This document shows, piece by piece, positions 40,101 to 64,000 of a stretch of DNA of 64,000 nt. The stretch's first letter is position 1; every line of letters starts with the position of its first letter. The notes under the pieces were generated by a model that worked only from the letters and a program-made list of their open reading frames with translations, did no database searches and was not told the origin of the DNA. The stretch comes from Phoronis australis (taxonomy: Eukaryota > Animalia > Phoronida), in assembly GCA_002633005.1 (NCBI GenBank), contig NMRA01000511.1, forward strand, positions 4,147 to 68,146, given 5' to 3'. The translations under genes were made by a program, and so were the position numbers.

Positions 40101-43100
40101 CGTCACAGGCAGTGGTCGGCCAGTGTGCCGTTGTGCTATTGGCTTCAAGGGCGCTACATGTCTGCAGAAAGATCCAACTTGCGGAAAGAAGTGTGGTAAA
40201 CATGGCAAATGCCAACAGGAGGACAATGTGTACTCATGTCACTGCGATGCCGGTTACAGCGGACTACGTTGTAGACGGCAGATTGATCCGTGTCTTTCCG
40301 CACCTTGTCGGAACGACGGAACGTGCCAGAAGTCAGCCAGCGGTTATCGCTGTAGTTGTCCAGACGGGTACACTGGGACACTATGTGAATCGCCGGTGGT
40401 GCGAAAATTTAACCCCTGCTCCAAGTCGCCGTGTGAAAATAATAGTACCTGTGTTACTATGGGCGACGGCTCCTACACGTGCATTTGCCTCCCGGCGTAT
40501 TTCGGGGCGAGGTGTGAGAACAAAGTTGAAACTCCTCACGACACCACCGTTGCAGTCTATTGCAACGGGAAGTCGGACAAACAACAATGCGGATCTCACG
40601 GAACTTGCGAGGACGGTGTTTGTAAGTGTGAGAAAGGGTACGATGGAATTCGGTGCGAGACAGATGTTGACGAATGTGCGGGCCTGCCATGCGGAGAGCA
40701 CGGGACGTGCGTAGATGGTATAGCCAAGTACACGTGTGTGTGTTCTGAAGGGTTTGAAGGGAGGAACTGCCAAACTGAGATTGACGAGTGCGTAAGTGGT
40801 CCGTGCCAAAATGGTGGCGATTGCGTCGACCTCATCGCCAGATATGAGTGCAGTTGTAACGAAGGTTTCACAGGACGTAACTGCGAGACAGACATCAATG
40901 ACTGCGCGTCGCAGCCGTGTGAAAACGGTGGTCTGTGTATTGACAGAGTTGCCGGTTACAGATGCGAATGTGCAAAGGGATATGATGGCAGGACGTGCCG
41001 TGTCGACATCGACGAGTGTGCAAGTAGCCCGTGTAAACACGGAGGAATCTGCAGAGACTTCATAGGCGACTACATGTGCAAGTGCGTTGACGGCTATGGG
41101 GGGAAGATGTGTGAGGGACTCCAGGACGCATGCGCTAAGAATCCGTGCAGGAATCAGGGAACTTGTCACACGGAAGAAGAGGGTGAATATTTCTGTGAGT
41201 GTCCCAAGAGGTATTTCGGCAAGAACTGCGAAACGACAAAGTTGGCCTGTCTTAGCAATCCGTGCCAAAATGGAGGGGGATGTGTGGAACAGGATGAATC
41301 CTTTACGTGCACGTGCAAATTAGGATTCACCGGAGCTCGATGCGAATTTGAGATAAACGAATGCAGCAACAATCCATGTTCGGACCATGGTATCTGCAAA
41401 GATGGTAAGGGGCAATTCACGTGCATTTGCAAACAAGGGTTCACGGGAGAGCTATGCGAAACGGAAATTGACATGTGTCAGTCCCAAGAGTGCAAAAACG
41501 ACGGACGTTGTATTACCGAAAGCGGTTTGGCCAGATGTTTGTGCACGCCCGGATTCGCAGGTACGGTCTGTGACGAAAACATAAATGAGTGTCTAAGCAA
41601 TCCTTGTAGAAATGGCGGGAAATGCGTAGATGGCGTTAACAACTACGTCTGCCTATGTAGTCGTGGTTTTTCTGGCCGCACTTGCTCAGAACTCACGCGG
41701 AAATGCATGGTAGGCACGTGCAAAAATGAAGGCACGTGTGTAGAGAATAAAGACGGTGCAAAATGTGTGTGCAAGCCAGGTTTTACCGGGGCTACTTGCA
41801 ACGTTGAAGTCAACGAGTGCGAAAGTTATCCGTGCAGAAACGACGGGTTCTGTCTTGACCTCGTAGACGACTATGGTTGTAAATGCACAGCCGGATTTTA
41901 CGGAAAAAACTGTCAGAGTGACTATAACGAATGTCTCTCCAACCCCTGCAGCAACAACGCTGTTAAATGCATAGACGGGACCAATTCTTTCAATTGTGTG
42001 TGTATGCCAGGTTTTACAGGGGTTACCTGTAGTACGGACATAGACGACTGTAAGGATCAGCTGTGTCAGAACGACGGCATTTGCCTGGACAAGGCCAATG
42101 GCTTCATATGCGAATGCTCCGGAAGCTTCACAGGTCGACTGTGCGAAAATAGGAAAGATCCTTGCGCCAGTAACCCGTGCACTGCTGAGCAAACGTGTAT
42201 GCATATGCAAGGTAACTTTGAGTGCAAGTGTCCACCAAACAGACATGGTGTCCACTGTGACAAAGAAGACACTCTCTGTCACTCTATGCCATGTAAGAAT
42301 GGAGGTGTTTGCAAGGGTTCGCCTCTGGAATACACGTGCCATTGCCAGGAAAATTACAACGGAATGAATTGTGAGATCAAGTACTGTGATGTCAATCAAT
42401 GTGGACACTTGTCCACATGCGTGGTGACTCATCGAGGTCACGGATTTAAATGTGTGTGCCCGCCTGGACTGGAGGGTGACAGGTGTCAACAGACGAAGGA
42501 ACCTTGCGCAAGCGCACCGTGCACACACGGTAACTGCTCGGAAGTCGAAGGCAAATTTGAATGCTCATGTGACGATGGATATCATGGGGTAAGGTGCGAC
42601 AAATATTACCCTTGCCTTAAAAACGTCTGCAAACACCAGGGCACGTGCATGAAGGTGAACCAAGGGTTTAAATGCTTATGTCCAACTGGTTACACCGGTC
42701 GAGATTGTCAACTGGTGACATGCGACCTCATAAACTGCGGCAACAACGGCAAGTGTGTGAAAATTAGGGGGACAGTGACGTGTCGATGTAACAAAGGCTT
42801 CACCGGAAAAGAGTGTAACGTCAGCAAAGGTGAGCAGGATATACAGGGACATGTTGACAATTGGGAGAAACGGGAAACATTTTTTATCTTAACAGAGCGC
42901 GTTTCAAAACGCTTTTGGTGCTTTCTGCATTCACTATTCTCATGCTATAGCAATCCTCATTAGATGATATACACGGAAACGAACCTAGCTTGCTTCCAAC
43001 ATATTGCTAAGTTCAGTAATTGAAACTGTATAGATCTTACAACAGTAGTGCTACATGCACATAGTGCACAACGGTCACTATATAACTGCCACTGGGTGAC

Positions 43101-45330
43101 CTGAACCATTGAAAGAAAAAATAGTTTAACCCTTCAAACTTGTTTACATTCTGTTAAATCAGCAAGCATGTCTTAGGATATCCGCATGACACTATAAACT
43201 AGTGGTCTTAACTGCTTTTATCTCCAAGAACAACACCGAAGTCCCACTCGTACAACAACAGGCGGCAGCAAGGATTTCAGATAAAATGATCTAATCTGGT
43301 GTGGAATCCTTGTAAATAATGTTAAAATAACCTTTTACAGACGGAGCGCGTCACCCCACTACGGTGCCAGATGGATCACGTAACACCACAACGTTGCCGG
43401 ATGTCAAAAGCGTTTCAACGACGTCCAGCGAGTATCCGATACGACCTAAAATAACAATATTCGGTTTCAACTTGTACGTGGCGCAGTTCCTAGCTGCTAT
43501 GCTTGGCGCCATCACCCTGTTTGTCGGCGTCTGCCTAGTGATCACCTGCTGCAGGGTCAGGTACACGGTTTCTAACTCGTACTCTACCCTAGACTTTGCA
43601 CTCATTGCACCCAAGCGTAGAGATATATAGACATGTGTTTAGCGCGTTTAATGGGGGCGGGGGGGGGGGGGTAAAANTCAAATTTCGGACTACAAAATTG
43701 TTTTTTAGATGTTTACGTCAAAGAGGCTTAACGGGGTCACGTGCAGCTGCCAAAATTTGTTCCAGTCACGCTTGTTCGTTTTTGGTGAAATCTGATAACA
43801 ACACATGTTTTCAAATACAACAGGCTGAAACAGCTTTCCATCAAGGACCGAAGATGCACGGCACCAAGCTTTGACCTAAACCGTAAGCAGTGCCCCAACG
43901 TTAAAAGTTCCGAGAGAAGCATACTCACCGGTCATGCTGCCTCGTCCAGTTCCCCGTCCCCTCCTAAAACAGGGACAGTCGGTGTGAAAGTGACTTCGAA
44001 AGGCCCAAGAGTCTACATGTCAGGCTTGTCAACGCCACCTTCAAAAGCCATGAAGACATGGCATAACAACTGCGAAGACAAGGAACAAGTTCTTGTGCGT
44101 CCCAGCATCACAGCGCGCAGTAGCCTTTTTATTGATTTGGCAGAGGAAGAGGAGAGGAGAATTATACAATCTAATGCTTCACTTCCAGTTACGGTCAGTA
44201 GTAAACATAAAACACAACCCGCCAGTCTGGTGAAGAAAGACGCTGGAACACGGGACGCCCATGTGAATGACAAAGGGGAAGTGGTAAGAGTAGTTTATAA
44301 CCATGAGAAAAGGGAGAAAAATGACGAAGGGGTCGTGTTGAATGAGGCAGACACGTCCGGAAAGAGGACAAGGGAGGCATTGAACAATTTATTCGAAAAT
44401 AGGGCAAACTCAAAATACCAGGTACCAAAGACGGAAATGGATGAGTCTCGTGTAAAGGAACGGGATAAATCTAAGAAAGTTCACAGGGATTCAGAGAGTA
44501 CCAAACGCGGGGTTGTAAAAAATTCGAACAATTCATACCAAGACACAGTAATCACAACGAGAGTTTCTAGCGAAAGCAACGTTGTTCCTTTAATGAAGAA
44601 TAAACACAGCAGCGTCGTGCGAGACATGATGAAGTTCTTTGAGAACAGATCCACTGGTGACACACCCAAGTATCCGCAGCGGAATTTCTACGTACCAGGC
44701 GAGAGTAATGACGCTGCGCAAGAGCAGCCGGTGTCTCGCACAAAGTTTGGAGAATCGTCTGCAAAGGTGATCACGGAGAAGAATGCAGGTTTCCAGAAAT
44801 GGGGATTTGAAAAAAGAAAAAGTGAGCAAATCGATGCTGGACCCCCTACACAAGAGGGGCAACCAGAGGCACACCATCAGAAGTATGTCCAAGAGGCACC
44901 AAACGCCAAAGAACCTGAGCTGTCAAGCTCGCACCGAGGAACTGTGTTGGCCCAGCAAACGCTCATCGACGACACATTAGGAACAACAAGACTAGTAGGT
45001 GATAAGATTCACGTGCTTGGCGAATCTGTGGAGATCATGCCAAAGAAAAAGCATAAAACGAAACATGGTCGTAAGCAAACTAAACATAGACGATCCCAGC
45101 CACATGAGAATGGCAACATCTGTCAGAAATCAGAAGGCTGTGATAATACGCCACAACAGAACGCACAAGCGTTAGAACTTGGCAGTAAGTCAAAAGCAGA
45201 TGTAGTAAATGACGAGATACGAGTTGACACAAAATTGACCGTCATGGAAGAAAATGAGGCGGAGAAGGCGAAGAAGCATAGGAGACGGTCATCGAAGCTT
45301 GTAAAATTGCTGAAGCGAGTAAAACCATAA
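3828..45330 (+). CDS. Multi-exon gene (49 predicted coding exons, ~2928 aa): type I membrane protein with signal peptide, 7 copies of an unassigned Cys-containing domain, Thr-rich linkers, 25 EGF-like repeats, TM helix and ~500 aa cytoplasmic tail
   Basis: Exons were found manually from AG/GT boundaries and paralogous translations. Phases are compatible at every junction, and the summed length of 8787 nt is divisible by 3 and ends at TAA 45328-45330. That all exons form one transcript is inferred. Confidence 0.7.
4688..4868 (+). mobile_element. MITE family 1 copy (with a 12-bp taggtcctagcg expansion)
   Basis: Imperfect TIRs ccgttcagtaacg.taggacct / aggtcctagcgtctactgaacgc; six copies in the window. 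Confidence 0.75.
5211..10264 (+). CDS. Repeat module A1 (6 exons: 5211-5381, 5776-5866, 6334-6458, 8342-8437, 9857-9913, 10196-10264)
   Basis: SCDELLDALSGQYF...RIEFSRDYYKVL...GLY / ISGSNPLHYCDVKC / YRCMNLMKVGEHLALNYKDS / CSKVTDCP...RLLN / NVTLAKPGEKLQP / DDYLDMTNNY. Canonical splice sites; exon sizes and phases match A2 and A3. Confidence 0.8.
7772..8325. repeat. 45-bp minisatellite, ~12 copies (intronic)
   Basis: Unit cacgttctgtatcgtgtacttacgcaccatttggggctgtattaa; 15-aa periodicity in the spurious ORFs. Confidence 0.95.
11378..13566 (+). CDS. Repeat module B1 (4 exons: 11378-11572, 11809-11896, 12829-12911, 13465-13566)
   Basis: CDTIALTLVGNYSLWSPEQMAHGWAKHVAKWLEIG...GLF / AHNVPFRFKIVHC...WSWVHT / YMCLIMRKVGDDVEGTY / MCNNTL...YPVNYFRFFN. 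Paralogous to B2 and B3, with the last three exons identical in size (88/83/102 nt) to those of B2. Confidence 0.8.
13590..13741 (-). mobile_element. MITE family 1 copy
   Basis: ggcgtgcattcagtaaacgctaggacc...aggtcctagcgttactgaacggg. Confidence 0.75.
14007..17265 (+). CDS. Array of six 33-nt phase-1/1 Thr-rich micro-exons (14007-14039, 14312-14344, 15066-15098, 15854-15886, 16645-16677, 17233-17265)
   Basis: Each reads tttcag|TGA..(33 nt)..CCAA|gta. Translations: SAVRKEITTP, RVTRKETTTP, ITTSMKKTTP, ITTSMEKTTP, STTSTKTTTP, STTRMETTTP. All are frame-preserving. Confidence 0.7.
14735..14909 (+). pseudogene. Pseudo-exon copy of the module-A first exon
   Basis: VSRLLSAVEGQYFHVSS matches 17419-17595, followed by a frameshift and stop. 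The donor is mutated from gtaagt to ctaagt. Confidence 0.75.
15507..15678 (+). pseudogene. Pseudo-exon copy of the module-A first exon (172 nt, frameshifted)
   Basis: LNALQGQCFYGSSLQSLGYFKES matches LDALEGHYFHVSSLQNLAYFKES. It is 5 nt shorter than the 177-nt intact exon; splice sites are retained. Confidence 0.7.
16296..16467 (+). pseudogene. Pseudo-exon copy of the module-A first exon (frameshift plus in-frame TAG)
   Basis: Near-identical to 15507-15678, with GGA TAT changed to GGA TAG. Confidence 0.7.
17419..20086 (+). CDS. Repeat module A2 (17419-17595, 17941-18031, 18339-18439, 18971-19072, 19353-19409, 20018-20086)
   Basis: LLDALEGHYF...RIEFGRDYYRVL...GLF / ISGTKPLRFCRL / YRCLRLMKSGSDLVVDYEDS / CHKVDKCP...RLVLLN / NATLAKPGEKLQ / RYLETTTNVYL. 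Exon-for-exon paralog of A1. Confidence 0.8.
19498..19650 (-). mobile_element. MITE family 1 copy
   Basis: gtgcgttcagtaacgctaggtcc...ggtcctagctttattgaacggtaggc. Confidence 0.75.
20516..22148 (+). CDS. Repeat module B2 plus linker (20516-20686, 20923-21010, 21399-21481, 21854-21955, 22098-22148)
   Basis: FCAPLLDGVVGRYSLWSLDQMRQGWAQKAPKYVEFGQDYF...GLF / ADNIPFRYSRVKC..WLWVHT / YMCIILRKIGEHVEGTY / MCINTL...YPKNYFRLYN / NETCVERAPAVKSNAS. Confidence 0.8.
22482..24559 (+). CDS. Repeat module A3 (22482-22649, 22939-23035, 23349-23446, 23844-23939, 24154-24210, 24491-24559)
   Basis: NCHVQMRPVLGQYW...IEFGPDYYKVI...GLF / ISGMRRLRYCHLQC / YRCMYLKRTGDNLSVAYKDS / NCSDVTDCP...RLFD / NTTVAPRGEILQP / EGFVDTTSKYLL. 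Confidence 0.8.
25003..27215 (+). CDS. Repeat module B3 plus linker (25003-25173, 25641-25728, 26192-26277, 26661-26774, 27141-27215)
   Basis: KCATLLEGVRGRYSAWSSREMEEGWAKSVPKWVEIERDYF...GLF / ADSVPFRYNEVSC..WLWI / YMCITLRKLGEDIEG / MCKY...YPAYFFRLYD / NVTRDRDVNSHDFLGDPF. Confidence 0.8.
27689..29757 (+). CDS. Divergent seventh repeat module C (27689-27835, 28286-28379, 28803-28873, 29632-29757)
   Basis: ECNVTATRIRGVYS...RIRFCLGYF...SLF / TDNIQFKYYQMKC / VRCLVLVANGSNLYGTF / SC...PNFFRLRN. Same 4-exon phase pattern (1-1, 1-2, 2-1, 1-1) as module B. Confidence 0.7.
27990..28160 (+). repeat. Dispersed repeat, inverted copy at 49669-49812
   Basis: catttggcgaagtgg..aaaaa..ccgcct.agaga...attcggcgaatgcac.attcat matches the reverse complement of 49669-49790. 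Confidence 0.65.
30969..31028 (+). CDS. Thr-rich (mucin-like) stalk exon
   Basis: ttctag|...|gtaaaa; EPTETSSTTPPTEGTTTTTT, 60 nt, phase 1/1. Confidence 0.7.
31179..31554 (+). mobile_element. MITE family 2 copy
   Basis: Collinear with 2569-2973 (gctctgagcccactag, gtctacgtcaccgcgaga, tggttagcccaatacat). Confidence 0.7.
32228..32378 (+). mobile_element. MITE family 1 copy
   Basis: gcctcccgttcagtaacgctaggacc...aggtcctagcgtctactgaacgcacg. Confidence 0.75.
34529..34615 (+). CDS. Ser/Thr-rich stalk exon
   Basis: ttttag|...|gtgcgt; APTSSSVSTIRDMSPTMSTTESTTTTLRT, 87 nt, phase 1/1. Confidence 0.65.
36135..36221 (+). pseudogene. Duplicate of stalk exon 34529-34615 with a broken acceptor
   Basis: Same 87-nt open sequence and donor, but the acceptor ttttAG is changed to ttttAT. 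Confidence 0.65.
36950..37367 (+). mobile_element. MITE family 3 copy
   Basis: TIR gtgccgggttgcatg.aacag / ctgtttcatgcaacccggcac; related copy at 54909-55277. Confidence 0.7.
38003..38233 (-). repeat. Penelope pseudo-LTR-like terminal repeat (3' copy)
   Basis: Directly follows the GIY-YIG stop codon; reverse complement of 39400-39647. Confidence 0.75.
38035..38078 (-). ncRNA. Minimal hammerhead ribozyme motif (PLE type)
   Basis: Minus strand reads cac-CTGATGA-tggccgg agaataga ccgacc-GAAAC-GTC-gtg: core boxes, stem II, palindromic ACGT stem III and short cac/gtg stem I. Confidence 0.6.
38233..38918 (-). mobile_element. 5'-truncated Penelope-like retroelement: RT C-terminus plus GIY-YIG endonuclease (frameshift and stop)
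   Basis: RYLDFNSNHTKGVKKGII...FERNGYP...LYIPGITEKLERV, then after a frameshift NVIYEIPCECGESYIGETLRPLDTRIADH..*GVAEH...KRKIKEA. Confidence 0.9.
38926..39400 (-). mobile_element. LTR-like segment (TG...CA, 475 bp) followed by a Copia-like GGTTAT remnant
   Basis: Minus strand starts TGTCAGAAT, has ggcTATAAAta near 39065 and ends ..cagCA followed by GGTTATTGG. No TSD seen. Confidence 0.4.
39432..39515 (+). promoter_or_regulatory. tRNA-derived Pol III promoter-like head (A and B boxes); not a functional tRNA
   Basis: A box TGGTGTAGTGG at 39439 and B box GGTTCAAATCC at 39495. The anticodon arm and acceptor stem do not close. Confidence 0.6.
39572..39615 (+). ncRNA. Minimal hammerhead ribozyme motif (PLE type)
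   Basis: cac-CTGACGA-tggccgg agaataga ccgacc-GAAAC-GTC-gtg. Confidence 0.6.
39908..42829 (+). CDS. Single 2922-nt exon encoding 25 tandem EGF-like repeats (many of the Ca-binding type)
   Basis: Within ORF 39874-42963; acceptor attacag|TC, donor AAAG|gtgagc. 25 six-Cys units counted, with D/E-I-D/N-E/D-C starts, and C-x-S-x-P-C and C-x4-T-C glycosylation consensus in many repeats. Confidence 0.93.
43341..43560 (+). CDS. Juxtamembrane and transmembrane exon
   Basis: ttttacag|..DGARHPTTVPDG...LYVAQFLAAMLGAITLFVGVCLVITCCRV|gtacac. Hydrophobic ~23 aa helix followed by CC and basic residues. Confidence 0.85.
43824..45330 (+). CDS. Terminal exon: ~500 aa hydrophilic, low-complexity cytoplasmic tail
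   Basis: caacag|G CTG AAA.. (phase 2) runs in frame into ORF 43984-45330. Rich in K/E/S; no ankyrin, RAM or kinase motif. Confidence 0.8.
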
Positions 45331-48187: not shown

Positions 48188-49860
48188 CAAACTATGAAGT
48201 GGGAAGATACATACATACATACATATACCGGAAGACAAACCTCTTTTTACCAGCACGTTCGCTGGTTGACAAGAAATTCGTTCCATTAATAGACGCTCTG
48301 TCGGATGTCACCATTCCCAGACAGCTATCCCAAGCAGAAACGTATTCTTGTGGGGTGGGGGGGGGGGGGGGNGGGGGGTCAGTTACCCCTGTTAGTGGCT
48401 GTAGGTCAACTGTAGTAATGTCAAGAAGTGTGTTTGTACCGATATATGTTGTGTAGTGAATTCTCGGGTTGTGGTTATTCTTTAAAGGTACCTGATGTCA
48501 GGGTCTAGTCCCGTATTTGCATACAACAATGTTGAGATCAAGTGGTCGTCATGTGTTCGAAATTATTCCCAGAAACTGCGAAAGGACGGGAATATACGGG
48601 CGAGTACATTTTCCAAAACCCGCAGTTTTTTATGTTCCGTACTTCATCCCAATATTGTCACCAACTTGCAAAATTACCAGATCCATCCTTAAGTATGGTT
48701 GGCCAATCGTGTGACATTCTTCAAAGAAATTGTAATTGGCTTATTTTCGAGCAGTATAGACTAATTTCCTATCAACACGGGCGCTCAGTGGAGTCTGATT
48801 GCAATTTGTACGGTTTCCGTGGTTTCCAAAAACGGACTCTAGAGTTGATGGGAAAATTCAGCTCTATAAATGGAAGCGTAACTGGTATGCGTCATCAGAA
48901 TTCTGTTGTGACGGAGAAGCAAGTACAAGTATATTTATGAAAAATCTTTTTCCTGAAACAGGCCTACATGTTCGTCGTTATCTATTTTGGGGGTATGAGT
49001 ACATTGATATTCAGCAGTGAAAAGGTGCAAAGGGGAATTTTTCGAAAAGGGATGCCACTAGCGGAGGCGTATTTTGGTTGTGTCCTCATAGGAACCACGT
49101 CAGCCTTCCTGGACTTCTTATCAAATTCTCGTGATAAACGAAGCATTGGCGCTGAATTCTGGATTATATCAGTCACGTGTTCATCTCTCCTCACGAGCAT
49201 ATTACCTTATGTCACTCCGTGGTAAACGGAAAATTTACAAAGTACGTGCAGTTGAAAACTTTATTATGAAAATATAAAATATGCATACAGGCTAAACTTG
49301 GTGCACTTGACAAACTACGTATTGCTGTCTGGAATATATGTGCACGTTGATCGAATGTAATTTCGGGGTCCGTCGTCCGATGAAATTTGCCAAAGTCTAA
49401 ACTAACGCAAATGAAACCATGCGCGCACCCAGCCTAAAATTGGGGGGGGGGCTCGAATTCCTGAGAATGTGGACCTTTGAGCAAGATTCACGGAGTATGT
49501 TCAGAGGTATGCAGGGGGCAGACCCAGGATTTTGACTTGAGGTAGAGCGGGACAGAGTATTAGCCAGGATTTTGCCCGTCAGACATTCGCACCTCGAACT
49601 GCCGTATGGAATCTTGGAGAATTTTAGGAGGGACCAAGGCAGCCACGGCAACTTAAATCCGCCACTATTATGAATAGTGCATTCGCCGAATTTTGTCCTG
49701 TATTTTTAGTGGATCTTTGTCTCATTTTCTACTTTTTGTCTCTCTGAGGCGGCCTTTTTGTCCACTTCGCCAAATGGGGGGCTCGAACTAGCCTCCATGG
49801 GTTTCGCGCATGGAAACCATTTACCTAATTCTGAAACCTTACCAAGTCGTTTCAGGGCAT

Positions 49861-50060
49861 TCAGTCGTATGTGTAATATACGTGGGCAGTTTTCACGCGG
49901 TGATAACGATTCACATGACGTTCCATGTAGTCTTTTCTCTTGAACATCTGGTCACATTGTGGACAACGGAATCTGTAGAAGTCTGTGTGTTGGGTTTTCA
50001 AGTGAAGTCGTAAGGCGCGTCGGGCTGACATGGGTTTACCACAGATGCCGCACTGAAAAC
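49861..50060 (-). CDS. C2H2 zinc-finger terminal exon (2 fingers)
   Basis: ctgcag|GT TTT CAG TGC (phase 1); FQCGICGKPMSARRALRLHLKTQH / FRCPQCDQMFKRKDYMERHVNRYH, then stop. Confidence 0.85.
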
Positions 50061-53000
50061 CTGCAGACAGTAAAGTAGAGTGGTCAATACATGTTGAGTT
50101 TCGCTTAAAAATTGTGTTCATCCATCAATCACCGAATAGACAGATATATGTGCATAATCTGAACAAACCGACACCAAACTTCAGTTCAAGTGAAGATGGA
50201 TTTTAACGACGCAAAAGGTTTGGAGCACTGGTATCTGGACACAGGAACACAGGGTCTAACCTGAGCTCAGACTCTTATTGGAAGTAACACCAATCACCCT
50301 ACACGACAACAGGCGTTCTGTCTATGGGACTCGGAATTCCACGGGTGCTTCACTTCAGCCGTCCATATCACTGAACACAAATCTCAATAAATTTACACGA
50401 AACAGGAATTCAATAAACCATGAGCAATTGCTCTTTCTCCTGATAGCATTTACAACGTCCTGCTCCCGCAACAAATTCGAGATTAAAACACATTGTCAAG
50501 TCTTCCCAAAAGGCCGATGCATAGCAACTCCTGTAAGACAGCTCACGTGAGTTAGCAGGGGAATGGTCGATTTGTCGGGAAAGTGACGACATCAATAACT
50601 ACTTAGCCAGACAATTTTGTAGCCTTCCGTGATGAACCGGCAATTGCCGTTATCCGTAACTCATAGGGCAATTCCGTACTTGACCCTAAAGCGACTCACG
50701 TGACCCGTGCGGTGGTAAGGTGGCGGTATTAGTTGGCTCTAGTTGTTTTGAGCCACGGTTCGGTTTGCCTCACAAACTTCACTAAAAATTGCATTTGCTG
50801 GGATGGCTGGGCATTTCAAGTTGTGTGCTGCATGGGAAAGCTACGAATGGAATCAGTTTTAATAGACGTTGCGCAAGGTTTTTGAAATATTTTGCCCATT
50901 CTGACTCATCAAATTTTCAGGTTTTGTACATCCTGTGGAACAGACTGTTGTAGTTGACTCGACCTGATTTTTCAAGCCCCAAATCATCAAACACTGTTGA
51001 GTGCAACCTTATCGTCGCAAACAGTTGAAAAATCCCACCTCTTTTAAATATCCATATAACGCTGTCCACCAACTATTCTACCTACATTTATGGACAAGGC
51101 GTATTTCTTCATGTCCTCGGAAGCAGTTTCATAGACCATTTTACGGATAGCGAGACATAAACAGAAAGGCATATGGGACGTCGGGTCGTCCAGCACATCC
51201 AGCAGGCGTACATGTGCTAAGTACAGACATTACTTAAGCCAAACGTTCAGTAGTTTATGACGAGTAAACAGTTAGCAAACGTGCGTCCTGCACGCCACAT
51301 TCTAACGAATGTTCTGATGCACACGATCTCCGGTGTGCCACAAGAAGTTTGGGTTAACTACATTTTCGAAGATCAGATAAAACTACACCATTTTAAAGAT
51401 GTGGTAGCACAATTTAAAGGGAGTCATTGTCTGGGGGATGTCTTCAAAAAGTGGCATTCCCTTTACATTTGTTTGGTCCTACAGTATATCTTGAGTACTA
51501 TAATTGAACAAACAACCATTTACATTGCAGTTTTTAATACTAACAAAACACAATAACCAATGAAACCCTTCTGTAGAGTTCTCGTGCAAAATGAATTTTT
51601 CTTTCTCAGAGTTCCTAACCTATAAACTGAACCCATTCATGTGACATTTTGTCTGAAAAGGCACCGTTTCGTGAGGAATGTGGCCGTAAAAAATCCACCA
51701 ATGAGAGCGGGATCAGATCTAACACCAAAGTACTCACAGGTTTAGAGGCAAAACGGAATAAAACACAAGAAACGGGAATACTCTTAGTGTTTTCTAACTT
51801 GTAACATATGGATATCAAACAGGACAAAAATGTGCATTCATCGGTTTTCGTCAAATACACGAATCCAACAATTTCGTAACAAGACGATCCGTCACAAAAC
51901 TATTAGCCGCGCGATACCAGAACACAACAGAGTATATTACAAATCATTTCCTACACCTTGGTATCCTATAGCAACGGAAATGTTTCAAGGAATATAATAT
52001 AATACCTATGTAAACAGATTTCATGTGTTTGATCCATGCACCGATCACATTTTTCGGTTTGACATTCATCTGGTCCTGGATGGTTTAGCAAACGTTAGGG
52101 CTTTAAAAACAACTTCCTCCAAGAATGTAGAAACTTTAATAAACAGGCGAAATTCCCGGATTCTTGATACCTGAAGTTGGAAACGCAACCGATACAACGT
52201 CTGCCTATAGTAAAGTTAAATCGTCGTTATTTCTAGTCTGTTTGTTGTCTTTTTGTTTGTAAGTTCTGGGCTTTAAGTCTTGGGGATTCCATGACTATTT
52301 CTTTGCCTTTACATTTCGAACAAAAGTGTAAATAGGTCGCGGTTCAAGGGTGTGGTACGGAGGGAAGCCCAGATTCATTATCGACGGCAAATGTCCACGT
52401 TGCCCCACTGGAAAGCAGGCGTCAACATCACAAGAAGACACTGACACTTCATATTTTGCGTTCGACGATCACTCAGTTTTGCCTCATTCATTGGTCATTG
52501 ATTGATCGGATATTTTCAAGCAATAGACGTCTCTTCGCTCGGTAACCCGCGGCATGATGCACGCAGATTCCACGCTGTTGATACTTTCCGAGCGAAGATA
52601 CATTACCGGGGGAGCACATCTGATGAAAGTCAACACTGATAATTATACAGACACTTATTATTAAGTGGATTCAAATAATGACGTCACAAATCCCTTGGCA
52701 GTGAAAAGATCCGACACAGACCTCGCGTAACAGGCGATAGAAACGAAGAGTTTACAATAGCCATGCATAGTTTACAATAGACATACACAGTTCAATAGCG
52801 ATGCATTATTAAGAAATCGCTTTCCCAGGTTTCTGGAACGTTTGGTTTTTCGGACCTGTACACTTTATATTCACGTGCTCTAACGTTTGTCTGAACGTCC
52901 CAAAAATCAAGGAATTGCTCATTTTTAAATGTTTTAAAAAACACCAATGTAGAAACACGAGTATAAATACGAACAAACTGCATAAACGATGCCAGCCGAA

Positions 53001-53532
53001 AGTCTTGCATGAGTAACACAAGCTCTAGGTCGAAGTAACGCAGGTGGGAGACAAGCCACTTGTTCTCTATTGTAATCATGTAATCCTATTGTAGAAACGA
53101 CAGTCGCCTGCAATCCTGGCCATGAAGCATTGAAAAATCACAGCTGAACAATCAAGGTAGTCTAAGATTTCAACTCTCTCACATAGATCTACGGCAGAAG
53201 ACTGCGCTGTCTGACCAAAGCGCCATCTAGTTGTCAAATCACCAATAGCCTCGTTCGCCGCTTGCGGACGAAGCGTCGCCAACGTGAGTTAATTGGTTGC
53301 AGTATAGAATTTTTTACTCTCATACCTACTATGACTGGATGCCTACAAACTTTTTCACTCTGATATCCTGAAGCTCACTTATAGCGAAAGCATCAGAACA
53401 GAAAAATATTCCACTTTCTATGAGTCTAAACAGAACAAGGTTCTTGTCTCAAATTCCCGTAACAGACACAATACCACGTAACAATTGAACCAGACCGTAC
53501 AAAAGAATTTTTTCAACCAAATAAACCTTGAA

Positions 53533-53867
53533 TCACTTCGAGGCCTGCCCATCCTTCGTCAAATCTGTCGAAATGGCGTGGACTGGGGGATCATCGTTGA
53601 CAATATCCGGGTGCAGTCGGCTCATATGCAGACGATAATACTTCTCCCCGCCAAACACGCCGTTACAATAGATACAGCGCAACTGTGGTTTCACAGTCAT
53701 GTCGTGATAACGCTCCTGGTGGCTCTGCAGGTGGTCACGGCGTGAACACACCTTAGGACAGTATTCGCACTTAAACCTGTCTTTGTCAATATGCAGGCTC
53801 CGAATGTGCGTATAGAGATTACACAACTTCGTAAGCTTTGTGCCGCATATGCCACATTGGTAGACGT
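53533..53867 (-). CDS. C2H2 zinc-finger terminal exon (3 fingers)
   Basis: tttttctttgcag|AC GTC TAC (phase 1); YQCGICGTKLTKLCNLYTHIRSLH / FKCEYCPKVCSRRDHLQSHQERYH / LRCIYCNGVFGGEKYYRLHMSRLH, then stop. Confidence 0.88.
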
Positions 53868-54908
53868 CTGCAAAGAAAAAACAGCCAATCAAGTCTTCGT
53901 GAGTCGCAGAAATGTGTCTTCCAAAGTGACTTGTAAAGACCAAGGCTATTAACAAAAGACATCGAAAAGAACCCAGTGGAATATGCCAATTCTTCACACC
54001 ATGTTATTCTCTCAAACAACTTGAAAAAGACAGTCTAGTTTGAACGTGATCACTGTAAAGGTGCACGCAGTTCGCTGTCGATATTGTTTATACACATGTA
54101 CGTGCTGTAGTTTTGAAAAAGGTCGGCGACATCAAATCTCGCCAAAAATCGGAGACATATCGAAGTTTAAATGTTATTTTTTCGTCTGGTTCCCCTGTGG
54201 ATGTTCGCCGCGTCGATGCCGGACGAATCAATGTCAACGCAATTCGCCAGTACTTTAAAAGACGTTGAAATCGCTAGTATCTCCCCACGTCGAAAACGGG
54301 CAAAGTTTTAAGTTTATGAGTGACAACGATGGGATAATATCCGAACAATTCCTTGTTTTGCTTCAGATTCCCTTCGGGGTTATCCCGACATCACGTGGTT
54401 AATTTTTTCTCGAGATTCAGGCATGCCGTGTGAAGGAAAACGTCACACAACAGCAACACATTTGCATTATTAAATTAAATTTTATTCGATCCTTAGATTA
54501 TCCACATCACTCGAAATAGACATTACACGATTATTATCAAGTAACACATTTTATAACTTCAAAAACACCACGTCACACATGAAGATAAAGGTCATACTGA
54601 CTGACATTTGTGCATACGATTTGCATATTATAGACATTTCACACAAACTCTTTCCCAGAGCTCTGTCTCCCCCAAGATAGCACCGTGGCGGAGCGTAAGT
54701 ACGGTACCTTATAGTTAATAACAATAACAAACGCGGCCACACGTAATGCACTTATAACTCAATCAATACACAAAATATTCTCTAAGTCAATGCCATGTCA
54801 GAATAAGCAAAGGGTCAACCAATCAGGGAAGAGTAAACAAACATGAAAACCTTGAGATGAAACGAATACGTAACCATAAACACATCTTATATAAAACAAT
54901 GTTGGATA

Positions 54909-55277
54909 CAGTGCCCGGTTGCATGAAACAGTCCCAAATCACTGTCCTATTTATGCTATGAATCTCATCATTAAGTCAATTTTAACATTGATAAAAATCG
55001 CGAGTGAAGCCTACGTTGAATTCGCAATATTATTAAAAAAAATAGGTATCTATTCAAGCAACGCCCCTAATTTAAGGACTAAGTTCTTAATTATTTTGAC
55101 TGAATTAAGGGCTCGTTTTTTAGTTATACTAAATGTCATTAGTGAAAGAGGAGCTCACAATGAAGATAAAATGATAGAAAAAATATATCTGTGAGAAAAG
55201 AACGAAACAAATACGCAAAAGATTTAGTGAGCTAAGCAGAGCCCCAATTTGGGATTATTTCATGCAACCAGTTACTG
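54909..55277 (+). mobile_element. MITE family 3 copy
   Basis: cagtgcccggttgcatgaaacagtcccaaat...atttgggattatttcatgcaacc; internal similarity to 37240-37360. Confidence 0.65.
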
Positions 55278-55745
55278 ACGACTGGAAAAGTCCACACAAC
55301 TCAGGTAACAGTCCGTAACATAATCAATGCCAACAAGAGAACTATATTACAGTGGCTGTACACGAAGGCGCACGCCAACGCAAAGGGAGGATGTCTTGTT
55401 TAGAGAGTATTTCATTCATTATGCGCGTAAGAAAACAACTTCCACAACTATTCAGGTGCTGAAAAAGAAACGCTGACGGAAGTGACGAGTTGTTCCCAAA
55501 TCTTCCGCTGGGTGATGCTCTCGTCGATCGCAAGCTTCTCTATGATTGGCTGCTGTACGACTTCCGTTAAGTGTTTCTTAGCCATACGAAGAGAATGGTA
55601 GCGAAGTACCTTCCTTACGTAAGATAGGTAGTTATGATGCGGTACATTGCAAAAAGTAACTTAGCAGACAAGTGTCCATGGTCCAGGTACAAATTCCAAA
55701 ACATGGAACCCAAAGGAGGGCGATCACCTTCACCTTGATTATACC

Positions 55746-56044
55746 TGCCTCCCGTTCATTAACACTAGGACCTCGCAAAAAAGCAAGACTTCGCGAGATT
55801 AGGTAAGATATTGCCGTGTATTTTAACTGAGAGCACGTGACTTTCGCTAGATTTTATCTCTAAGTCCTAGCGTAGGTGCTAGCGTCTACTGAACGCACGC
55901 CAGGCGTGCGTTCAGTAGACGCTAGGACCAAGCTAAAACCTAGTAAAAGGCACGTGTTCTCATTTAAAATGCACGGCAATATCTCACGTACTCTCACGAA
56001 GTCTTGCTTTTTAGCGAGGTCCTGGCGTTACTGAACGGGAGGCT
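55746..56044. mobile_element. Two MITE family 1 copies fused in inverted orientation
   Basis: 55746-55901 followed immediately by an inverted copy at 55903-56044; centre gaacgcacgccaggcgtgcgttc. Confidence 0.8.
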
Positions 56045-56767
56045 GGGGTATACTAATCCAGGTTGTCAACTACATTTATATATAATTAACTTGTACATGT
56101 TTCTATCTCTCTATTTACAGCACACTCACGTCTAAAAACGCTAGCGTATACCAAAACATTTACAAGACATAATTCTGCATTAACAAGAGCTTAAAATTCC
56201 TCCGCGTCCATAAAAAAGCCTAAAAAATCCAAACCAACAGCATCGTGGGAGCAGACAAGTTTCTCATCATTAATACTTCGTTTTAATACCTTACCCAACA
56301 CCATATATATTTCCAATTTCTGGAAAATCAGCACAAGTTAGTAATCAATGCCATATTTTTAATCACGATTATTACTTTAACCAAGACACACTTTTCACCG
56401 GAAGGATTCTAAAAATAGTAAATATAATAACATCTTCGAATAGATAATACTGGCCTGAAGTCATTTTCGAGAAACTAACACAACAAATATATAAATTTTG
56501 AAATAGTTTTTGCATAATCTTAACAGCACTTGAGTTACATTATTTGTACAACATTGTCAATGAATTATTACATCTTCTCAATATTATGATTATAGTTAAT
56601 TCAAGCAAATATTGAAAAAAACAACAAACGATTGAGGTAGGCAACCTTTGAACTAAATATTTACATCATTCAACGAGTAACGAAACTGAAACCTTCGAAA
56701 CTCCGTGGTCACTCGAGTACTTGACCAAGCCAGTACACGAAAACGCGCCCTCTACCTAGATTCACCA

Positions 56768-56920
56768 GGGCCCAGTTGCATAAAAGCTATACGCCGTATA
56801 CCAACAATGACGTCGCATGATCACGCGCCACGTTGTTATTGTTGAACAATGCACCTGACGTCATGCAACAATCAAACTTATCCAGCGGATAACTTTTGAA
56901 GCTTTATGCAACTCAGCCCA
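56768..56920. mobile_element. Small MITE-like element
   Basis: TIR ggcccagttgcataaaagct / agctttatgcaactcagcc. Confidence 0.5.
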
Positions 56921-57452
56921 GAAGTTCTGGTTTTAAGTAATTTAGCATGATTAATCACCTTACATTTAGGTTTCTCAGAAAGTTTTTAGACACATACCGC
57001 AATTATTATCACCTGTAACATCGGACTTCACGAACGTCCATTTGTTAAACAGTGTTGTTTTGCTGGTGAACCACAGCGACTTGTTCTGAGCATGTCAATA
57101 TATCGCTACCGGTTCGAGTGCATGATTGCATTGCATGTGGAAAACTGCATCAACCAGAATCCTTTAAAACATAAACCGTTGTTAAGTCACATTGTTAGTG
57201 AGTGATAAATTTTGCAAAAAATCGACTATGAACTTAGCAGAGTAACATCCGATTGCGACACGGAAACATCGCCCTCTAACGTCTTGAAAAGAAACAAAAA
57301 AAACGTAAGCATTATTCATATCCTATGGCCGACAAAATGATACAGATTTCAGAGCAGTAAGCAATCCGATTCCGAAACATGTGAAGACAGAATTATGCCA
57401 ATCAAGACAACTATCAGCACTGGGTCCTAACAAAGGGGCACGGCTGGCAGCC

Positions 57453-57724
57453 CTATTGAATGAGGTCGTGATGGAATTTCTTCAGGTGCAACCGGAAGTA
57501 TTTCTCGCCGCTGAACACGCCCTTGCAGTAGGAGCAGGTGTACTCGGGGTTGTTGTCCTTGTGATAGATCTCCTGGTGCTTCTGCAGGTAATCGCGCCGC
57601 TTGTAGATGGCCGGGCAGAATTCGCATTTGAACCGCTTCGTGTCTATATGCTGCGTCCGAATATGAAAGTATAGGTTGCAGAGCTGGGACAGACTAGTGC
57701 CGCATATACCGCAAGTGTAGAACC
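57453..57724 (-). CDS. C2H2 zinc-finger terminal exon (3 fingers; not called in this frame in the ORF track)
   Basis: ttttttctttccag|GG TTC TAC (phase 1); YTCGICGTSLSQLCNLYFHIRTQH / FKCEFCPAIYKRRDYLQKHQEIYH / YTCSYCKGVFSGEKYFRLHLKKFH HDLIQ*. Confidence 0.88.
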
Positions 57725-58557
57725 CTGGAAAGAAAAAACGTCACCATGACGATCACAACATCTAGCCTGACACACAGCCTCCTGCCTATTTAACAACCAA
57801 TCACGCGTGAGAGCGAGTGCTCGTGCGAAGCAACACCGACAGGATATGAATGAGAACACCGTGAACGACTCAAGTAAGGGAAAGCCACCTCCCAAATCTA
57901 TTATTTACCTTAAAGCGTGGCCAAATCAATATGTTAATATTGTGGTTGTGAAAAATACGTAGTTAGACGTCACTTTTAATTTTGGTCATATCATTGAACG
58001 CTTTTTTCTATCGCGCAATGATCAATCTTATTTGGAAAAATCATCAGGTTTGAAGATATTTTAGTTAAGCTTTTAAATTTAATTAAAAATTAAAACTCAA
58101 CAATTACCTTAGTTGGCGACTTTCTCTTGTTCTAAATGGTCTAAAGGCACTGTTCGTAAGATTGAGAAATCGTATCACCACACCTTACAGCAACTTACAT
58201 GTAGGCACCGCCGTACTGGTATGAAAAGGTGCAAATAAACTTTCGTCAATCACCCCTTTACTACGCTAGAGGGTACTGCACACAAGGTCGGCAGAGGTGT
58301 CCGTTATTAGCCCAAAAAGATTTAATTACTGCAATTAGTCGTCAGAAACACAGGAAAGTTATATCCCGATTAAGGTTAGTACAAGCTACATATAGATCAA
58401 TCTGACCAGATGAATACGCATTCACTACTCGTAAGCGCTATGGCATTACGATATAATTGCTATTTCTCTAAACGACCACCTAAGCAGGATTCTAGCAAAG
58501 GACAAACACAGGGAGTACTTGAGATTCCCCCACTACATAAATGCAGAAGGGACCGAG

Positions 58558-58740
58558 TAGAGAATTATGGGCTCCTCTGTCTCTTTTGACCCACTATTGG
58601 ACCTAGACGACTTATCCGATAGAATTATAGAATCCTCTGTCTCTTTTAACCCACGATTCGGCCTAAACGACTTATTCGATAGAATTATAGACTCCTCGGA
58701 CTCTTTCGACCCACGATTGGGCCTAGATGACTTATTCCAT
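58558..58740. repeat. 60-bp tandem repeat x3
   Basis: tagaattat.g..tcctc.g.ctcttt..accca...tt.g.ccta.a.gacttat.c.a repeated with a 60-nt period. Confidence 0.85.
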
Positions 58741-59769
58741 AACTAGTTAATGTGGTTCCTCGTTACAGGAACAATAATTCGCCACTCATTTTACGATTTT
58801 TGTCGCCAGTTCAACAGTTTGATTGTATTTTTATGTTATTTAAGTCTTGTGGAAAACTCTTAGGGTTTCTAGGAGTACTAGTAGTTTGTCAATACATTCG
58901 GGGTCCACTGGTGGTACACGCAGGTGGATTCAATTGGTGCACCCGAGTCGGACTCGTGAATCCAAACGCGTGTGACGCTGGCACTCTTAAGACAAGGATT
59001 CTGCACATTTTGCATAAAAATGAGTCCCAGAATTCCGCCTGATCATTGTTTATCAGAGATTTGGTATTCGCACTATCGGCAAGCCCGGCTGTTATACGCT
59101 CGTTCGACAGCTCACGTCACCACTGAGGAAATAGGACTGCGGAGGCCACGGATGGAGGTGTAATTCCGGGCAGCTACATTGCCAGAAAAAACGTGTTGTG
59201 AAAGAATGCGCGAGAATATGTGTGGAGGACACTTCCACGAACTACGCGTGGTCACGTGACTCAATCATATTTTGGCGGTGAAACATCCGCCATTGTCAAG
59301 CTTTATTCAGAGAAGGGATGCCAGGATGGCTGCAGGTACAATAGACAGAACAATCCAAAACACGCAAAAATACCACAACAGGATTGGCTAGCAATCAACG
59401 AATCACAACTCGATGTAACAGTGTCAACAACTCATGGGAAACCTGTGCATTAAGTGAAAGGATCTCTAAAATCCTATGTAGTGTATAATTTGATTGTAGT
59501 TGTTATCAAGCATCTTATATTGGTGAGACAACTCACCACTTGACGACACGGATGAAGGAACGCTTAGTTTACGTAGAGATAAGAATTCGCATAACTTTAG
59601 GTACTAGAAAAACAATGCTGCTTGTGTAGAGGCCGCAAAAAGACATTCGCATTCAGTGTTCGGAACGCCCTCAATCATTGCACAAGTTTCACATGAGTCG
59701 TTGGTATTGTTACACTGAGTTGTGATTTGCTGATTGCTTAGCCAATCCTGATCTGGTATTTTGTAACAT

Positions 59770-60183
59770 TCTGTGTATTGTACCTGCAGCCATCCTGGCA
59801 TCCATTCTGTGTGTATTGTACCTGCAGCCATCCTGGAATACATTCTGTGTGTATTGTACCTGCAGCCATCCTGGCATACATTCTGTGTGTATTGTACCTG
59901 CAGCCATCCTGACATCCATTCTGTGTGTATTGTACCTGCAGCCATCCTGGCATACATTCTGTGTAATGTACCTGAAGCCATCCTGGCATACATTCTGTGT
60001 AATGTACCTGAAGCCATCCTGGCATACATTCTGTGTAATGTACCTGCAGCCATCCTGGCATACATTCTGTGTAATGTACCTGCAGCCATCCTGGCATACA
60101 TGTGCATCCTGTGTATTGTACCTGCAGCCATCCTGGCATACATTCTGTATATTGTACCTGCAGCCATCCTGGCATACATTCTC
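59770..60183. repeat. 36/38-bp minisatellite, ~11 copies, inside the right arm of an inverted repeat
   Basis: Unit gtgtattgtacctgcagccatcctggcatacattct. Confidence 0.95.
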
Positions 60184-61676
60184 TGAATAAAGCTTGACAA
60201 TGGTGGGTGTTTTACCGCCGAAACATTTTAGAAAAGTCTTTATTCAAACAGTGCTTCCATCAAGTTTCTAAGATATTCCAGGTTCAAACATTTCCCTAAG
60301 CCCAAGAAAATCTCGAAACTCTCGAACTCTCCTTTACCTAAACATAATTTTGAAACTAACTTTCATAAATTACACAGAAACCTATAATATGGGTGAAATG
60401 AATCTGAAAAAAATACAAAAATGAGAACTTTATAAGTGTGATCGTTTGAAAATTTATTTGTAAATTGCAATATTCCTCGTTCCACAAGAGTTCATCGTTT
60501 GCTCATAAGATAATACAATGTATACACGCCCTGAATACTACAGGCCCCTCGTTCAATTTACAGCACCATTGTGCAACACATGTGTTTCTATTAATGCAAC
60601 AAAGCACCAATGTACTGTAAGCAGTGCCAACCAATTCGTAAACTTTTCGTCTAAACGGGAGCGCCACCTCTGTGAAGGCTTTCTCGCCTATGCAACAACA
60701 ATTCAGCGCCGTTTTCTCACAGAGTAACACTTCCAAAGATAAAAATGATTATATTTTCACAAATTGTCTGTTAGCATGCTCACCGTATATGCCCACTGAC
60801 GAAGATACGTGCAAAGCCAAGCTATTGAATTAGCGACTACATTAATTATTAAGGGTAGGATTGGCGTGATACAGTCGTTAGATGGCCACCATATTTCCCC
60901 TGGCACGACGAGAGGAGAGAAAGCGTCAGAACACCACGAAAAAGACAACGAACACGAAAGATACCAGAGATCAACAGGCACTCCCCAAAATGATTAAAAC
61001 GACCAGTGAAGTGGTTCTCAACATCGTTTATCTTGTTCTGTTGATAAAGTGGGTAATGAATCTGAAACACTGGAGTCGAATAAGTGTGCCTACTTAAGAG
61101 TTCGAGTAGACCCCGGAATACGCTGTATTGTTGATTAGTAGCGGGTTTCACGAGACCACGTTGGCTTTCTCACAAAATCTCCCATGAAAGTTGACTACCT
61201 CTTGATTATCACACGATTCGCATGCAAGAAACATCAAATTTTACCTGGTTTCAATTCAGACAGCCACGCTAAAAGTCAATAGAGACTTAAACATACAGAA
61301 ATAGCGGGAGACAGTGTTGAGGTAGATCTGCATGCGAGGGTCTAACATTACAATGCACAACAACGAGAGCTCAACAAAATCTAATGTTTCAAAACAATAA
61401 CGTTAATGCAAAACATGACAAACCGTTGACGTTTGAGCAGTCCCAGACGCAGCTCCAGCCGACTTCCACCTGCCAAGATCTCACAGACCGCATCTGCCTT
61501 TTTCACGTCACAAGGCGGGAATTAGAAAATACAACCACGATCGAACAGCATGTAACTAAATGGGTTCTGATGTAATTATAGATTTTTTTGCGTGGATTCC
61601 ACGACACGCATCTCTATTTGAAGGACTCTGGTGCATTAGATATTACTCTACAAATGCAGTCACATTTTTAAACAAT

Positions 61677-61939
61677 CTACACATGTTTGTGAAATCTGTT
61701 CATGTGCAAAATATATGCTCTATCGCCGGAAAAAGAGCCGCTACAAATGTCACAAGAGATAGCGTTATCCGAGCTCGAGTGATACACCTGAATGTGTTTT
61801 GTCCGATAGTCTTTTCGACGAAATGTCGCCGGACATTTGTCACAACTGAGCAGTGTGACATCTGTGTGAAGGGTCCGCATATGACACATCATGTTGCGCT
61901 TAAGCGTGAACCGTTTGTCGCAAAGGAGACAAGCGAACT
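61677..61939 (-). CDS. C2H2 zinc-finger terminal exon (3 fingers)
   Basis: tttttcggtttcag|AG TTC GCT (phase 1); FACLLCDKRFTLKRNMMCHMRTLH / LSCDKCPATFRRKDYRTKHIQVYH / ISCDICSGSFSGDRAYILHMNRFH KHV*. Confidence 0.88.
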
Positions 61940-64000
61940 CTGAAACCGAAAAAGATAGAGCTGACGATGCATGGCACAATTTCCAACTTGAGAAGTTATC
62001 TCAGATGTCTCTCCTAGACACGGCAGTAAATAAGACGGACGCGTTCTTCAGTAGGTTCTGTGGTGACGCATGCACAATCACCAACGCACAGCGGCTGTTT
62101 ACCAAATTAAAGATGCAGTGATCTTCACACGTGCACGAAGCACCGATGCATATTTTGGTTGTTTTCCTAGTTCAATTCGAGAATTTTAATTAATATTCAC
62201 TCACGTTCTTACATTTCGGCAGCTTTATTGTTCTAGCTGGCTACAATATTATCACTACGTCAGTATAGCACCAATGCAACTAACAAAAATGCACCAAGAC
62301 AATTAAAGATGAAATTACATCAAATCAAAGAATTTCAGTTTTCAACAGTTGATGCGACCTTGTTATTAGGTCTAAACTTCACATTCGCACCAGGACCTAA
62401 CTGAATCGGTTTTGTCGACGGACTTTAGTTTTATACCTCAACTGCCACCACGTTCTTGACAAAGAGACTTTCAAGAATACCAGAAACTTTTAATTAACAT
62501 ACAGCGCAAAATAAGGAGTTTTCAACGCTAATCCATAACATTACCATTTAAATATTATTGAAAAGAGATGTTTCGAAAAACTCTGACATTCTCACTGCAG
62601 ACAGAAGAATCATCAGCAAAGAATGGCCGAACAAAAGGAGCAAAATAAAAAGTACCTCAAGTAATTTGTGAATGATTTATTTCTTAATAAGCGCAGTGGC
62701 TCTCGTGTAACACATCCTCCAGTTTCAAAAACCAAGTGGAAATTGAGGACACAATGTTGTAACCCATTTATGAAAACCAAAGGCAGGTTCGCCAAGAGGT
62801 GTGTGGACAAGAATGACGGGACCGTGGTCAACGTCGTCATCAATCTGGCACAATACTATCATTTCAACGCTATGTGTAGGTCAGCAACACAGATCCACTG
62901 GTGAAATGAAAATGATGTTCGACATAAGAGAACATGCACTGTTCACCTAAAGCTTAAATTGATTAATTTGGCGATCGACATCCGCCTTTCCCTTGCACGT
63001 ATCCATGTGTCGCCTTACGAGACAAGGTCGCTTGAACCCCGTAAGGCAATAGGGGCAGTAAAACTCTTTCATCCCTAGGTGGCGCCGTATGTGCTCTTTA
63101 ACGTTCTGCGCTCGTTTAATAGACACCCCACATAGTTGACAGAGAAAGCCTACAAATGACAGAAAACTCTGATTGGAGAAGCGGTAAACGAGGAAAACTG
63201 AAACGCAAGCTGAAGTTAACCTCAGTGTAGGAAGTCAGTGTAAAGGGACAGACTTAAAGCATGGGACGTGTCAACATTTTAGTGAAACCCCAGACAAAAT
63301 TCTTGACTTAAACCCATACACTGAAGTAGCTTATCCCGAAATCACCAGGACTAAAAAGGAGATGACGCCACCGAACATTAGCGAAGCTTGTTTGCCAAGA
63401 AGCACGAGCGCTCGTTATGGCGAACAAAATGGGCAGACAAAGCCCACTGACATCGAAATAAGACAATTCGACACTATGTACCAAAGGACTTCCTCACTGC
63501 TGACAACTAATGGATAATAAAACCTGGCAAACATACTACAGGTAGACCGGACTAGAACTCAATCGGAGAACATGCGAATACATTGATAGAAAAAGTAGTC
63601 AGTTACTCAGTTGTAGTGCTCAGTTTACAACAGGGACGGATCTACTCCACTAAATCTAAGCTATAATTACTAAGCTAATTACAAAGGACAGTACGATTTA
63701 CACTTAATTATAACTTTAGGCACAGAACTAAGAGTATCAAAATAAAAAAGGTCTACAATAAACCACTCGATGTGTTCAAGCCTGTCGTCAAGGCAACGTC
63801 GGAGCGATATGCCACCTGAATCGTTTAGTCCACTAAGTCAAACAGGACCGAAATTCAAAATGCCCCAATTACAACTCCAGTTCTGAATACGACGATGATC
63901 GGTAGAGTTCACCAGAACAAACATACTACAGCCCCGTGAGAAACTTCAGCATGGATAAAATTTCTGTGGCGACGGCTTTCCTCAACAACCCTCAATGTGC

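Follow-up and report, generated by a model that had tools for sequence, protein, structure and literature searches.

Analysis of a 64,000-nt stretch of Phoronis australis DNA (contig NMRA01000511.1 of assembly GCA_002633005.1; hereafter, the window) revealed five zinc-finger exons on the minus strand, c1 to c5, which probably form the 3' end of an array of alternative last exons belonging to a single transcription-factor gene, in a layout like that of the fly gene lola. The cassettes were located by six-frame translation combined with a finger pattern search and inspection of the raw sequence, and are numbered from 5' to 3' along the minus strand (Table 1). An earlier sequence-only reading had described four minus-strand cassettes, corresponding to c2-c5, and all three procedures confirmed them at the coordinates given there. 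Its count of two or three fingers per cassette was right (three in c2-c4, two in c5), but the array had been undercounted by one because c1 was overlooked. Neither the finger pattern search nor tblastn found a sixth cassette anywhere in the 64 kb. Since no cassette follows c5 and a convergent EGF-repeat gene on the plus strand ends at 45330, we place the 3' end of the array at c5 (49861).

Table 1 Cassettes and adjoining features at the 3' end of the putative array
Feature	Position	Strand	Description
Intron 5' of c1	63150..64000	-	donor exon beyond window
c1	63149-62947	-	last exon; one C2H2 (H-x3-H) then one C2HC finger; phase-1 acceptor AG 63151-63150; own stop
Likely 3' UTR (untranslated region) of c1	62660..62946	-	AATAAA at 62681; RNA depth drop
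c2	61939-61677	-	three H-x4-H fingers; phase-1 acceptor AG 61941-61940; own stop
c3	57724-57453	-	three fingers; phase-1 acceptor AG 57726-57725; own stop
c4	53867-53533	-	three fingers and tail; phase-1 acceptor AG 53869-53868; own stop
c5	50060-49861	-	two fingers; phase-1 acceptor AG 50062-50061; own stop; first AATAAA 49265; most 3' member

All five cassettes (5/5) combine a phase-1 acceptor with a stop of their own, so that several paralogous finger exons show the layout of an alternative-last-exon zinc-finger array; for c2-c5, the start after a polypyrimidine-AG, the phase and the stop had already been described correctly. The exon begins 8 or 11 nt ahead of the first Cys codon in each cassette, after a pyrimidine-rich YAG (CAG in c2-c5), and an in-frame ATG ahead of that Cys is absent in four of the five. 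Agreement in phase among five acceptors has a probability of (1/3)^4 = 0.012 under independent phases, an assumption of that figure; because the cassettes are paralogues, we regard the common phase as inherited. Among the 828 AG dinucleotides in 64000-48000, the acceptors of c2-c5 ranked third to sixth and that of c1 33rd by an ad hoc score composed after the sites had been seen. The Cys/His ligands are intact throughout c1-c5, with finger 2 of c1 ending in Cys (C2HC), and the H-x4-H spacing attributed to the four cassettes named earlier was found in every finger of c2-c5. Pfam scores for zf-C2H2 (PF00096) exceeded the curated cut-off of 25.2 bits in 5/5 cassettes (38.9-41.8 bits in c2-c5, 32.8 bits in c1). 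The spacing of about 4 kb proposed earlier applies between c2 and c5 (3952, 3585 and 3472 nt), whereas c1 lies just 1007 nt from c2. Poly(A) signals (AATAAA/ATTAAA) are located 0.6-1.4 kb 3' of c2-c5.

The RNA evidence came from three raw-read runs (X1-X3, about 18-19% of each) and a contig set (X4), all carrying the same species label, over the stretches 61450-63350 and 49000-59700; first-mate plus reads represent RNA from the minus strand in most stranded libraries. All raw-read depth in 61450-63350 was first-mate plus, including that over c1 (4.4-13.6 in bins 62922-63177). Reads with loose ends behind 63151 numbered six in X1 (median 51 letters) and three in X2, with the same consensus and an agreement of 1.0; X3 had no such row, giving junction rows in two of the three raw-read runs. 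Given that an AG at the joint can be assigned to either side, the position of the junction coincides exactly with the acceptor that had been predicted. The 30-letter spliced-on consensus has no match in the window at up to three mismatches, and the donor exon therefore lies outside the window. Translated by hand, these letters stay open in the frame of c1; this is weak evidence, as chance alone would leave 10 codons open with a probability of about 0.6. On the 3' side of c1, depth drops beyond the AATAAA at 62681 and reaches zero at 62474-62537 in all three runs. Among the read variants listed, two fall in the coding part of c1 (one synonymous, one a Phe-to-Tyr change in the tail seen in X4 only), and its UTR carries five substitutions and an insertion. 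A shared upstream exon beyond 64000 had been postulated from the sequence alone; the splicing of c1, at its phase-1 acceptor, to an exon that the window does not contain supports this in part.

Further downstream, coverage is weak evidence that c3 and c4 are transcribed on the minus strand. Depth over c3 was 1.2-4.2, all first-mate plus, with 0-0.7 in the two bins directly upstream; depth over c4 was 0.5-7.0, first-mate plus, with 0 in the bin directly upstream. The bins of c5 are covered by repeat-derived reads from both strands. The spacers contain repeats resembling miniature inverted-repeat transposable elements (MITEs). In one, at 59267-60226 in the c2-c3 spacer, inverted ends of 84 bp with 90% identity enclose a tandem repeat of 36-38 bp; another, palindromic, at 55744-56046, has copies at about 4.7, 13.6, 19.5 and 32.2 kb and many RNA reads from both strands.

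Several observations weigh against a single array behind one donor. No junction to any of c2-c5 occurs among the rows listed, so for the four cassettes named earlier the shared exon lacks the support found for c1. On the donor side one sequence was found, of which 30 letters are visible, and the c1 junction need not speak for c2-c5, given that c1 is of a differing type. Much of the RNA around c1 is unspliced, as a depth of 3-5.6 runs on into the intron 5' of it. For c2, depth was 0 in X1, 0.5-2.8 in X2 and 0-1.9 in X3, with neither a step at the acceptor nor a junction row. Spacer bins reach a minus-strand depth like that of c3 and c4 (58996-59352, 2.4/0.5/1.3 in X1/X2/X3; 54355-54711, 1.3/1.3/2.6; 51499-51855, 3.1/1.8/0), and the coverage of c3 and c4 may therefore be nascent RNA. 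In 49000-59700, repeats gave most of the reads and dominated the loose ends (24 of 604 rows visible), so that no junction was readable for c3-c5. An in-frame ATG lies 21 codons upstream in c5. Finally, the homologue searches returned no orthologous cassette from elsewhere, and those for longer proteins with c3 and with c1 gave no candidate, which is weak evidence.

The foremost rival reading, though an unlikely one, is that c2-c5 are last exons of another gene or donor than c1, in two arrays that adjoin or are nested. Protein identity between cassettes ranges from 24 to 58%, and c1 is the most divergent (24-30% identical to c2-c5) and has a different finger type; together with the restriction of junction reads to c1, this would fit two donors. 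On the other hand, c1 shares with c2-c5 the strand, the phase and the offset from acceptor to first Cys, the 1-kb gap between them contains no coding exon, and a second front end would need to sit beyond 64000 or to be joined in trans.

Comparison of the exons with their surroundings bears on whether exons or whole genes were duplicated. None of 15 spacer or flank pairs gave a tblastx or blastn match, whereas 8 of 10 exon pairs matched under the same program. As a control in the same window, a tandem multi-exon gene family at about 5-26 kb retains paralogous exons along its length. Paralogous exons between spacers that contain no paralogous sequence thus indicate that exons were duplicated, not genes. 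This agrees with the earlier statement that no coding exon lies between the cassettes, as far as paralogous exons are concerned; short or unrelated first exons would escape both the spacer comparison and a search for open frames. The latter, for frames of at least 40 codons running from an ATG to a phase-1 donor, returned the tandem repeat at 59.8-60.2 kb and, within the last spacer, a single 46-codon frame at 50592. That frame, the patchy minus-strand reads in the spacers and just 5' of c2, and a spacer length of 3.5-4 kb that could accommodate a small exon are what speaks for ordinary tandem genes, each driven by a separate promoter and beginning with a short coding exon. We nevertheless judge such an arrangement very unlikely: no two spacers are similar even though c3 and c4, the closest pair, are 58% identical; c1 is spliced to sequence outside the window; and none of the joints listed (15 of 31) connects a spacer to a cassette. 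Promoters in the spacers alone would leave the alternative-last-exon model standing, because variable exons of mod(mdg4) have promoters of their own (PMC12692577).

Across all 10 cassette pairs, the proportion of synonymous differences (pS) was 0.61-0.90 and that of nonsynonymous differences (pN) 0.28-0.54, and there was no internal stop or frameshift in c1-c5. Near-saturated synonymous sites combined with intact frames indicate that the copies are old and still constrained. Synonymous divergence (dS) exceeded 1.2 or had reached saturation in every one of the 10 pairs. These data also bear on the idea that c2-c5 are dead or transposon-borne exon copies that have fallen out of use, for which one may point to their very low RNA depth and lack of junction reads, to the missing finger 3 of c5 and to the MITE-like repeats that fill the spacers. 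It is very unlikely, since the cassettes have retained their open frames, strong acceptors and full set of Cys/His ligands despite the near saturation of synonymous sites, the flanks are unrelated and share no terminal repeats, and c2, c3 and c4, unlike the repeats, show little or no coverage from both strands. Least probable of all, to the point of being hardly credible, is an operon-like arrangement in which each cassette is a short gene of its own and is supplied with a spliced leader: the sequence spliced on at c1 does lie outside the window and end in AG, but its median loose length in X1 of 51 letters is at or above the length of known spliced leaders, and with the first Met of c1 after finger 1 and none in c4 until after finger 2, leader-joined mRNAs would not encode intact cassettes. 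Chaining of cassettes into one protein, considered separately and already dismissed in the sequence-only reading, is ruled out by the stop in each, and no c1-c2 joint is among the RNA joints listed.

Under the array of alternative last exons, the last common exon would end in phase 1 and its donor would be joined to one cassette acceptor per mRNA, with c2-c5 presumably using the same donor as c1. Which cassette is used might depend on a contest between splicing to its acceptor and cleavage at the poly(A) site of that exon; with the cassettes all colinear on the same strand, cis-splicing would suffice. The resulting proteins would share their front part and differ in the end predicted to bind DNA. 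The array itself probably grew by tandem duplication of single exons together with their acceptors.

Analysis of the positions expected to contact DNA (-1, 2, 3 and 6) showed that the fingers of c2-c5 differ in how far these are kept: they were identical in 16/24 comparisons for finger 2, 5/24 for finger 1 and 8/12 for finger 3, the pairs not being independent. At other non-structural positions, the corresponding counts were 9/48, 15/48 and 8/24, so the contacts of finger 1 (5/24 identical) are just slightly more variable than its other positions (15/48). The helices LKRNMMC, QLCNLYF, KLCNLYT and ARRALRL, and the finger 2 motif R-K/R-D-Y/H, had been quoted correctly in the sequence-only reading. 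Finger 1 keeps Asn+3 in c1-c4 and varies at -1 and +6, and finger 3 has Gly-1 and, in c3 and c4, an aromatic residue at +3. In the canonical C2H2 code, Arg-1 with Asp+2 reads G and Asn+3 reads A. By this code, finger 2 (Arg-1/Asp+2) is predicted to anchor on a common G-containing triplet and finger 1 to alter the neighbouring triplet, while finger 3 would be a weak or non-canonical reader.

Among known systems, broad, fruitless and tramtrack each combine a single BTB front end with a small number of alternative last exons that encode zinc fingers, and have fewer endings. To our knowledge, BTB zinc-finger (BTB-ZF) genes of this type, the TTK group, occur in arthropods only. TTK-group BTB-ZF genes have multiple C-terminal isoforms (PMC11426971). 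In lola there are 20 last exons, 17 of them with zinc fingers (PMC10551640), and the likeness to the Phoronis cassettes lies in a row of alternative last exons, mostly short finger sets, each with its own stop and 3' UTR and joined to common exons (PMC10551640, 10.1101/132027). In contrast, lola has an N-terminal BTB of the TTK type, reported only in arthropods (PMC11426971), whereas the front domain of the Phoronis gene lies outside the window; lola uses cis- and trans-splicing, whereas for the colinear Phoronis array cis-splicing is sufficient; and three of the Phoronis cassettes carry three fingers. In Mollusca and Annelida, no TTK-type BTB was found (PMC11426971). Membership in the lola/BTB family is unlikely because the TTK-type BTB is reported as arthropod-specific (PMC11426971); our comparison to lola is one of layout alone and does not imply membership.

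The gene mod(mdg4) likewise joins common exons to variable 3' exons, which form a long array and encode zinc modules that bind DNA or protein. Its isoforms, at least 30, mostly carry FLYWCH modules (PMC11426971), whereas the Phoronis modules are C2H2, with no Pfam match to FLYWCH in any of c1-c5. All mod(mdg4) isoforms are reported to be trans-spliced from independent promoters (PMC12692577) and some variable exons lie on the opposite strand; the five Phoronis cassettes, in contrast, are colinear and all on the minus strand. Trans-splicing of both lola and mod(mdg4) depends on a U1-binding motif (TSA) in the last common intron (PMC4387717).

A more far-reaching reading is that a non-arthropod animal independently evolved a full lola/mod(mdg4)-like system, with a non-BTB front, at least 10 finger endings over about 37 kb, distal endings (c2-c5) produced from internal promoters by trans-splicing, finger 2 serving as a constant anchor and finger 1 switching the specificity. 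We consider this doubtful as a whole, well short of the array itself. Hints toward internal promoters and trans-splicing are the many reads unspliced across the c1 acceptor and a patch of reads 5' of c2 that is cut off by a zero-depth bin. The patch, at 61962-62473, consists of few minus-strand reads just 5' of the c2 acceptor and is separated from the c1 UTR in all three runs; it may reflect read-through, an extended UTR or transcription that starts internally.

Homologue searches returned generic finger proteins. A profile search against 1.84 billion representatives gave generic many-finger proteins only. Among the best 150, the highest single-stretch score was 49.7 bits, and the leading blastp rows for each cassette had 28-43% identity; ten of these 150, with grouped fingers, were looked up and yielded no orthologue. 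Of 216 candidates from a scan with the c3 and c4 alignment, two loci were singled out; both encode generic finger proteins, with an identity of 29-33%. An Atlas search with c3 gave generic C2H2 clusters only, and a PDB search gave CTCF, ZFP568 and other generic fingers. The 30-letter consensus spliced on at c1 had no match in metagenome contigs.

The rest of the window contains other genes and repeats. The convergent EGF-repeat gene (39874-45330, plus strand) has a 1030-codon intronless frame with 24 Pfam EGF matches, an exon near 43340-43560 that is likely to encode a transmembrane segment, and a last frame of 513 codons that is of low complexity and has no Pfam match; the best relatives of its protein are at most 46% identical and come from mixed phyla. 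In the intron region before the EGF exon, a 155-codon minus-strand frame (38490-38954) has no Pfam match and presumably resembles the C-terminal part of a Penelope-type retroelement protein. The tandem multi-exon family at about 5200-26000 (plus strand) has repeated internal modules that are 45-60% identical, with paralogous exons at 5225/17439/22565, 6350/18331/23374, 11407/20521/25008 and 11790/20904/25625 and partial extra copies at 14.6-16.5 kb; the pieces tested had no Pfam match, and no usable Atlas match was obtained. Over the whole window the observed/expected ratio of CpG is 0.95, TACATGTA occurs 10 times against 1.7 expected, and CACGTG occurs 42 times against 10, both expectations from base composition.

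Arrays of zinc-finger last exons have been described in print for fly BTB genes. Literature searches brought up no paper on such an array outside arthropods among the listings and abstracts covered, and public gene annotation may already show this one. If one gene does provide at least 10 DNA-binding variants behind an unrelated front domain, the design would have evolved more than once, and the diversity of transcription factors in these animals would be greater than gene counts suggest. Such a gene would also offer a second system for asking how a choice is made among many last exons, and whether distal ones need trans-splicing.

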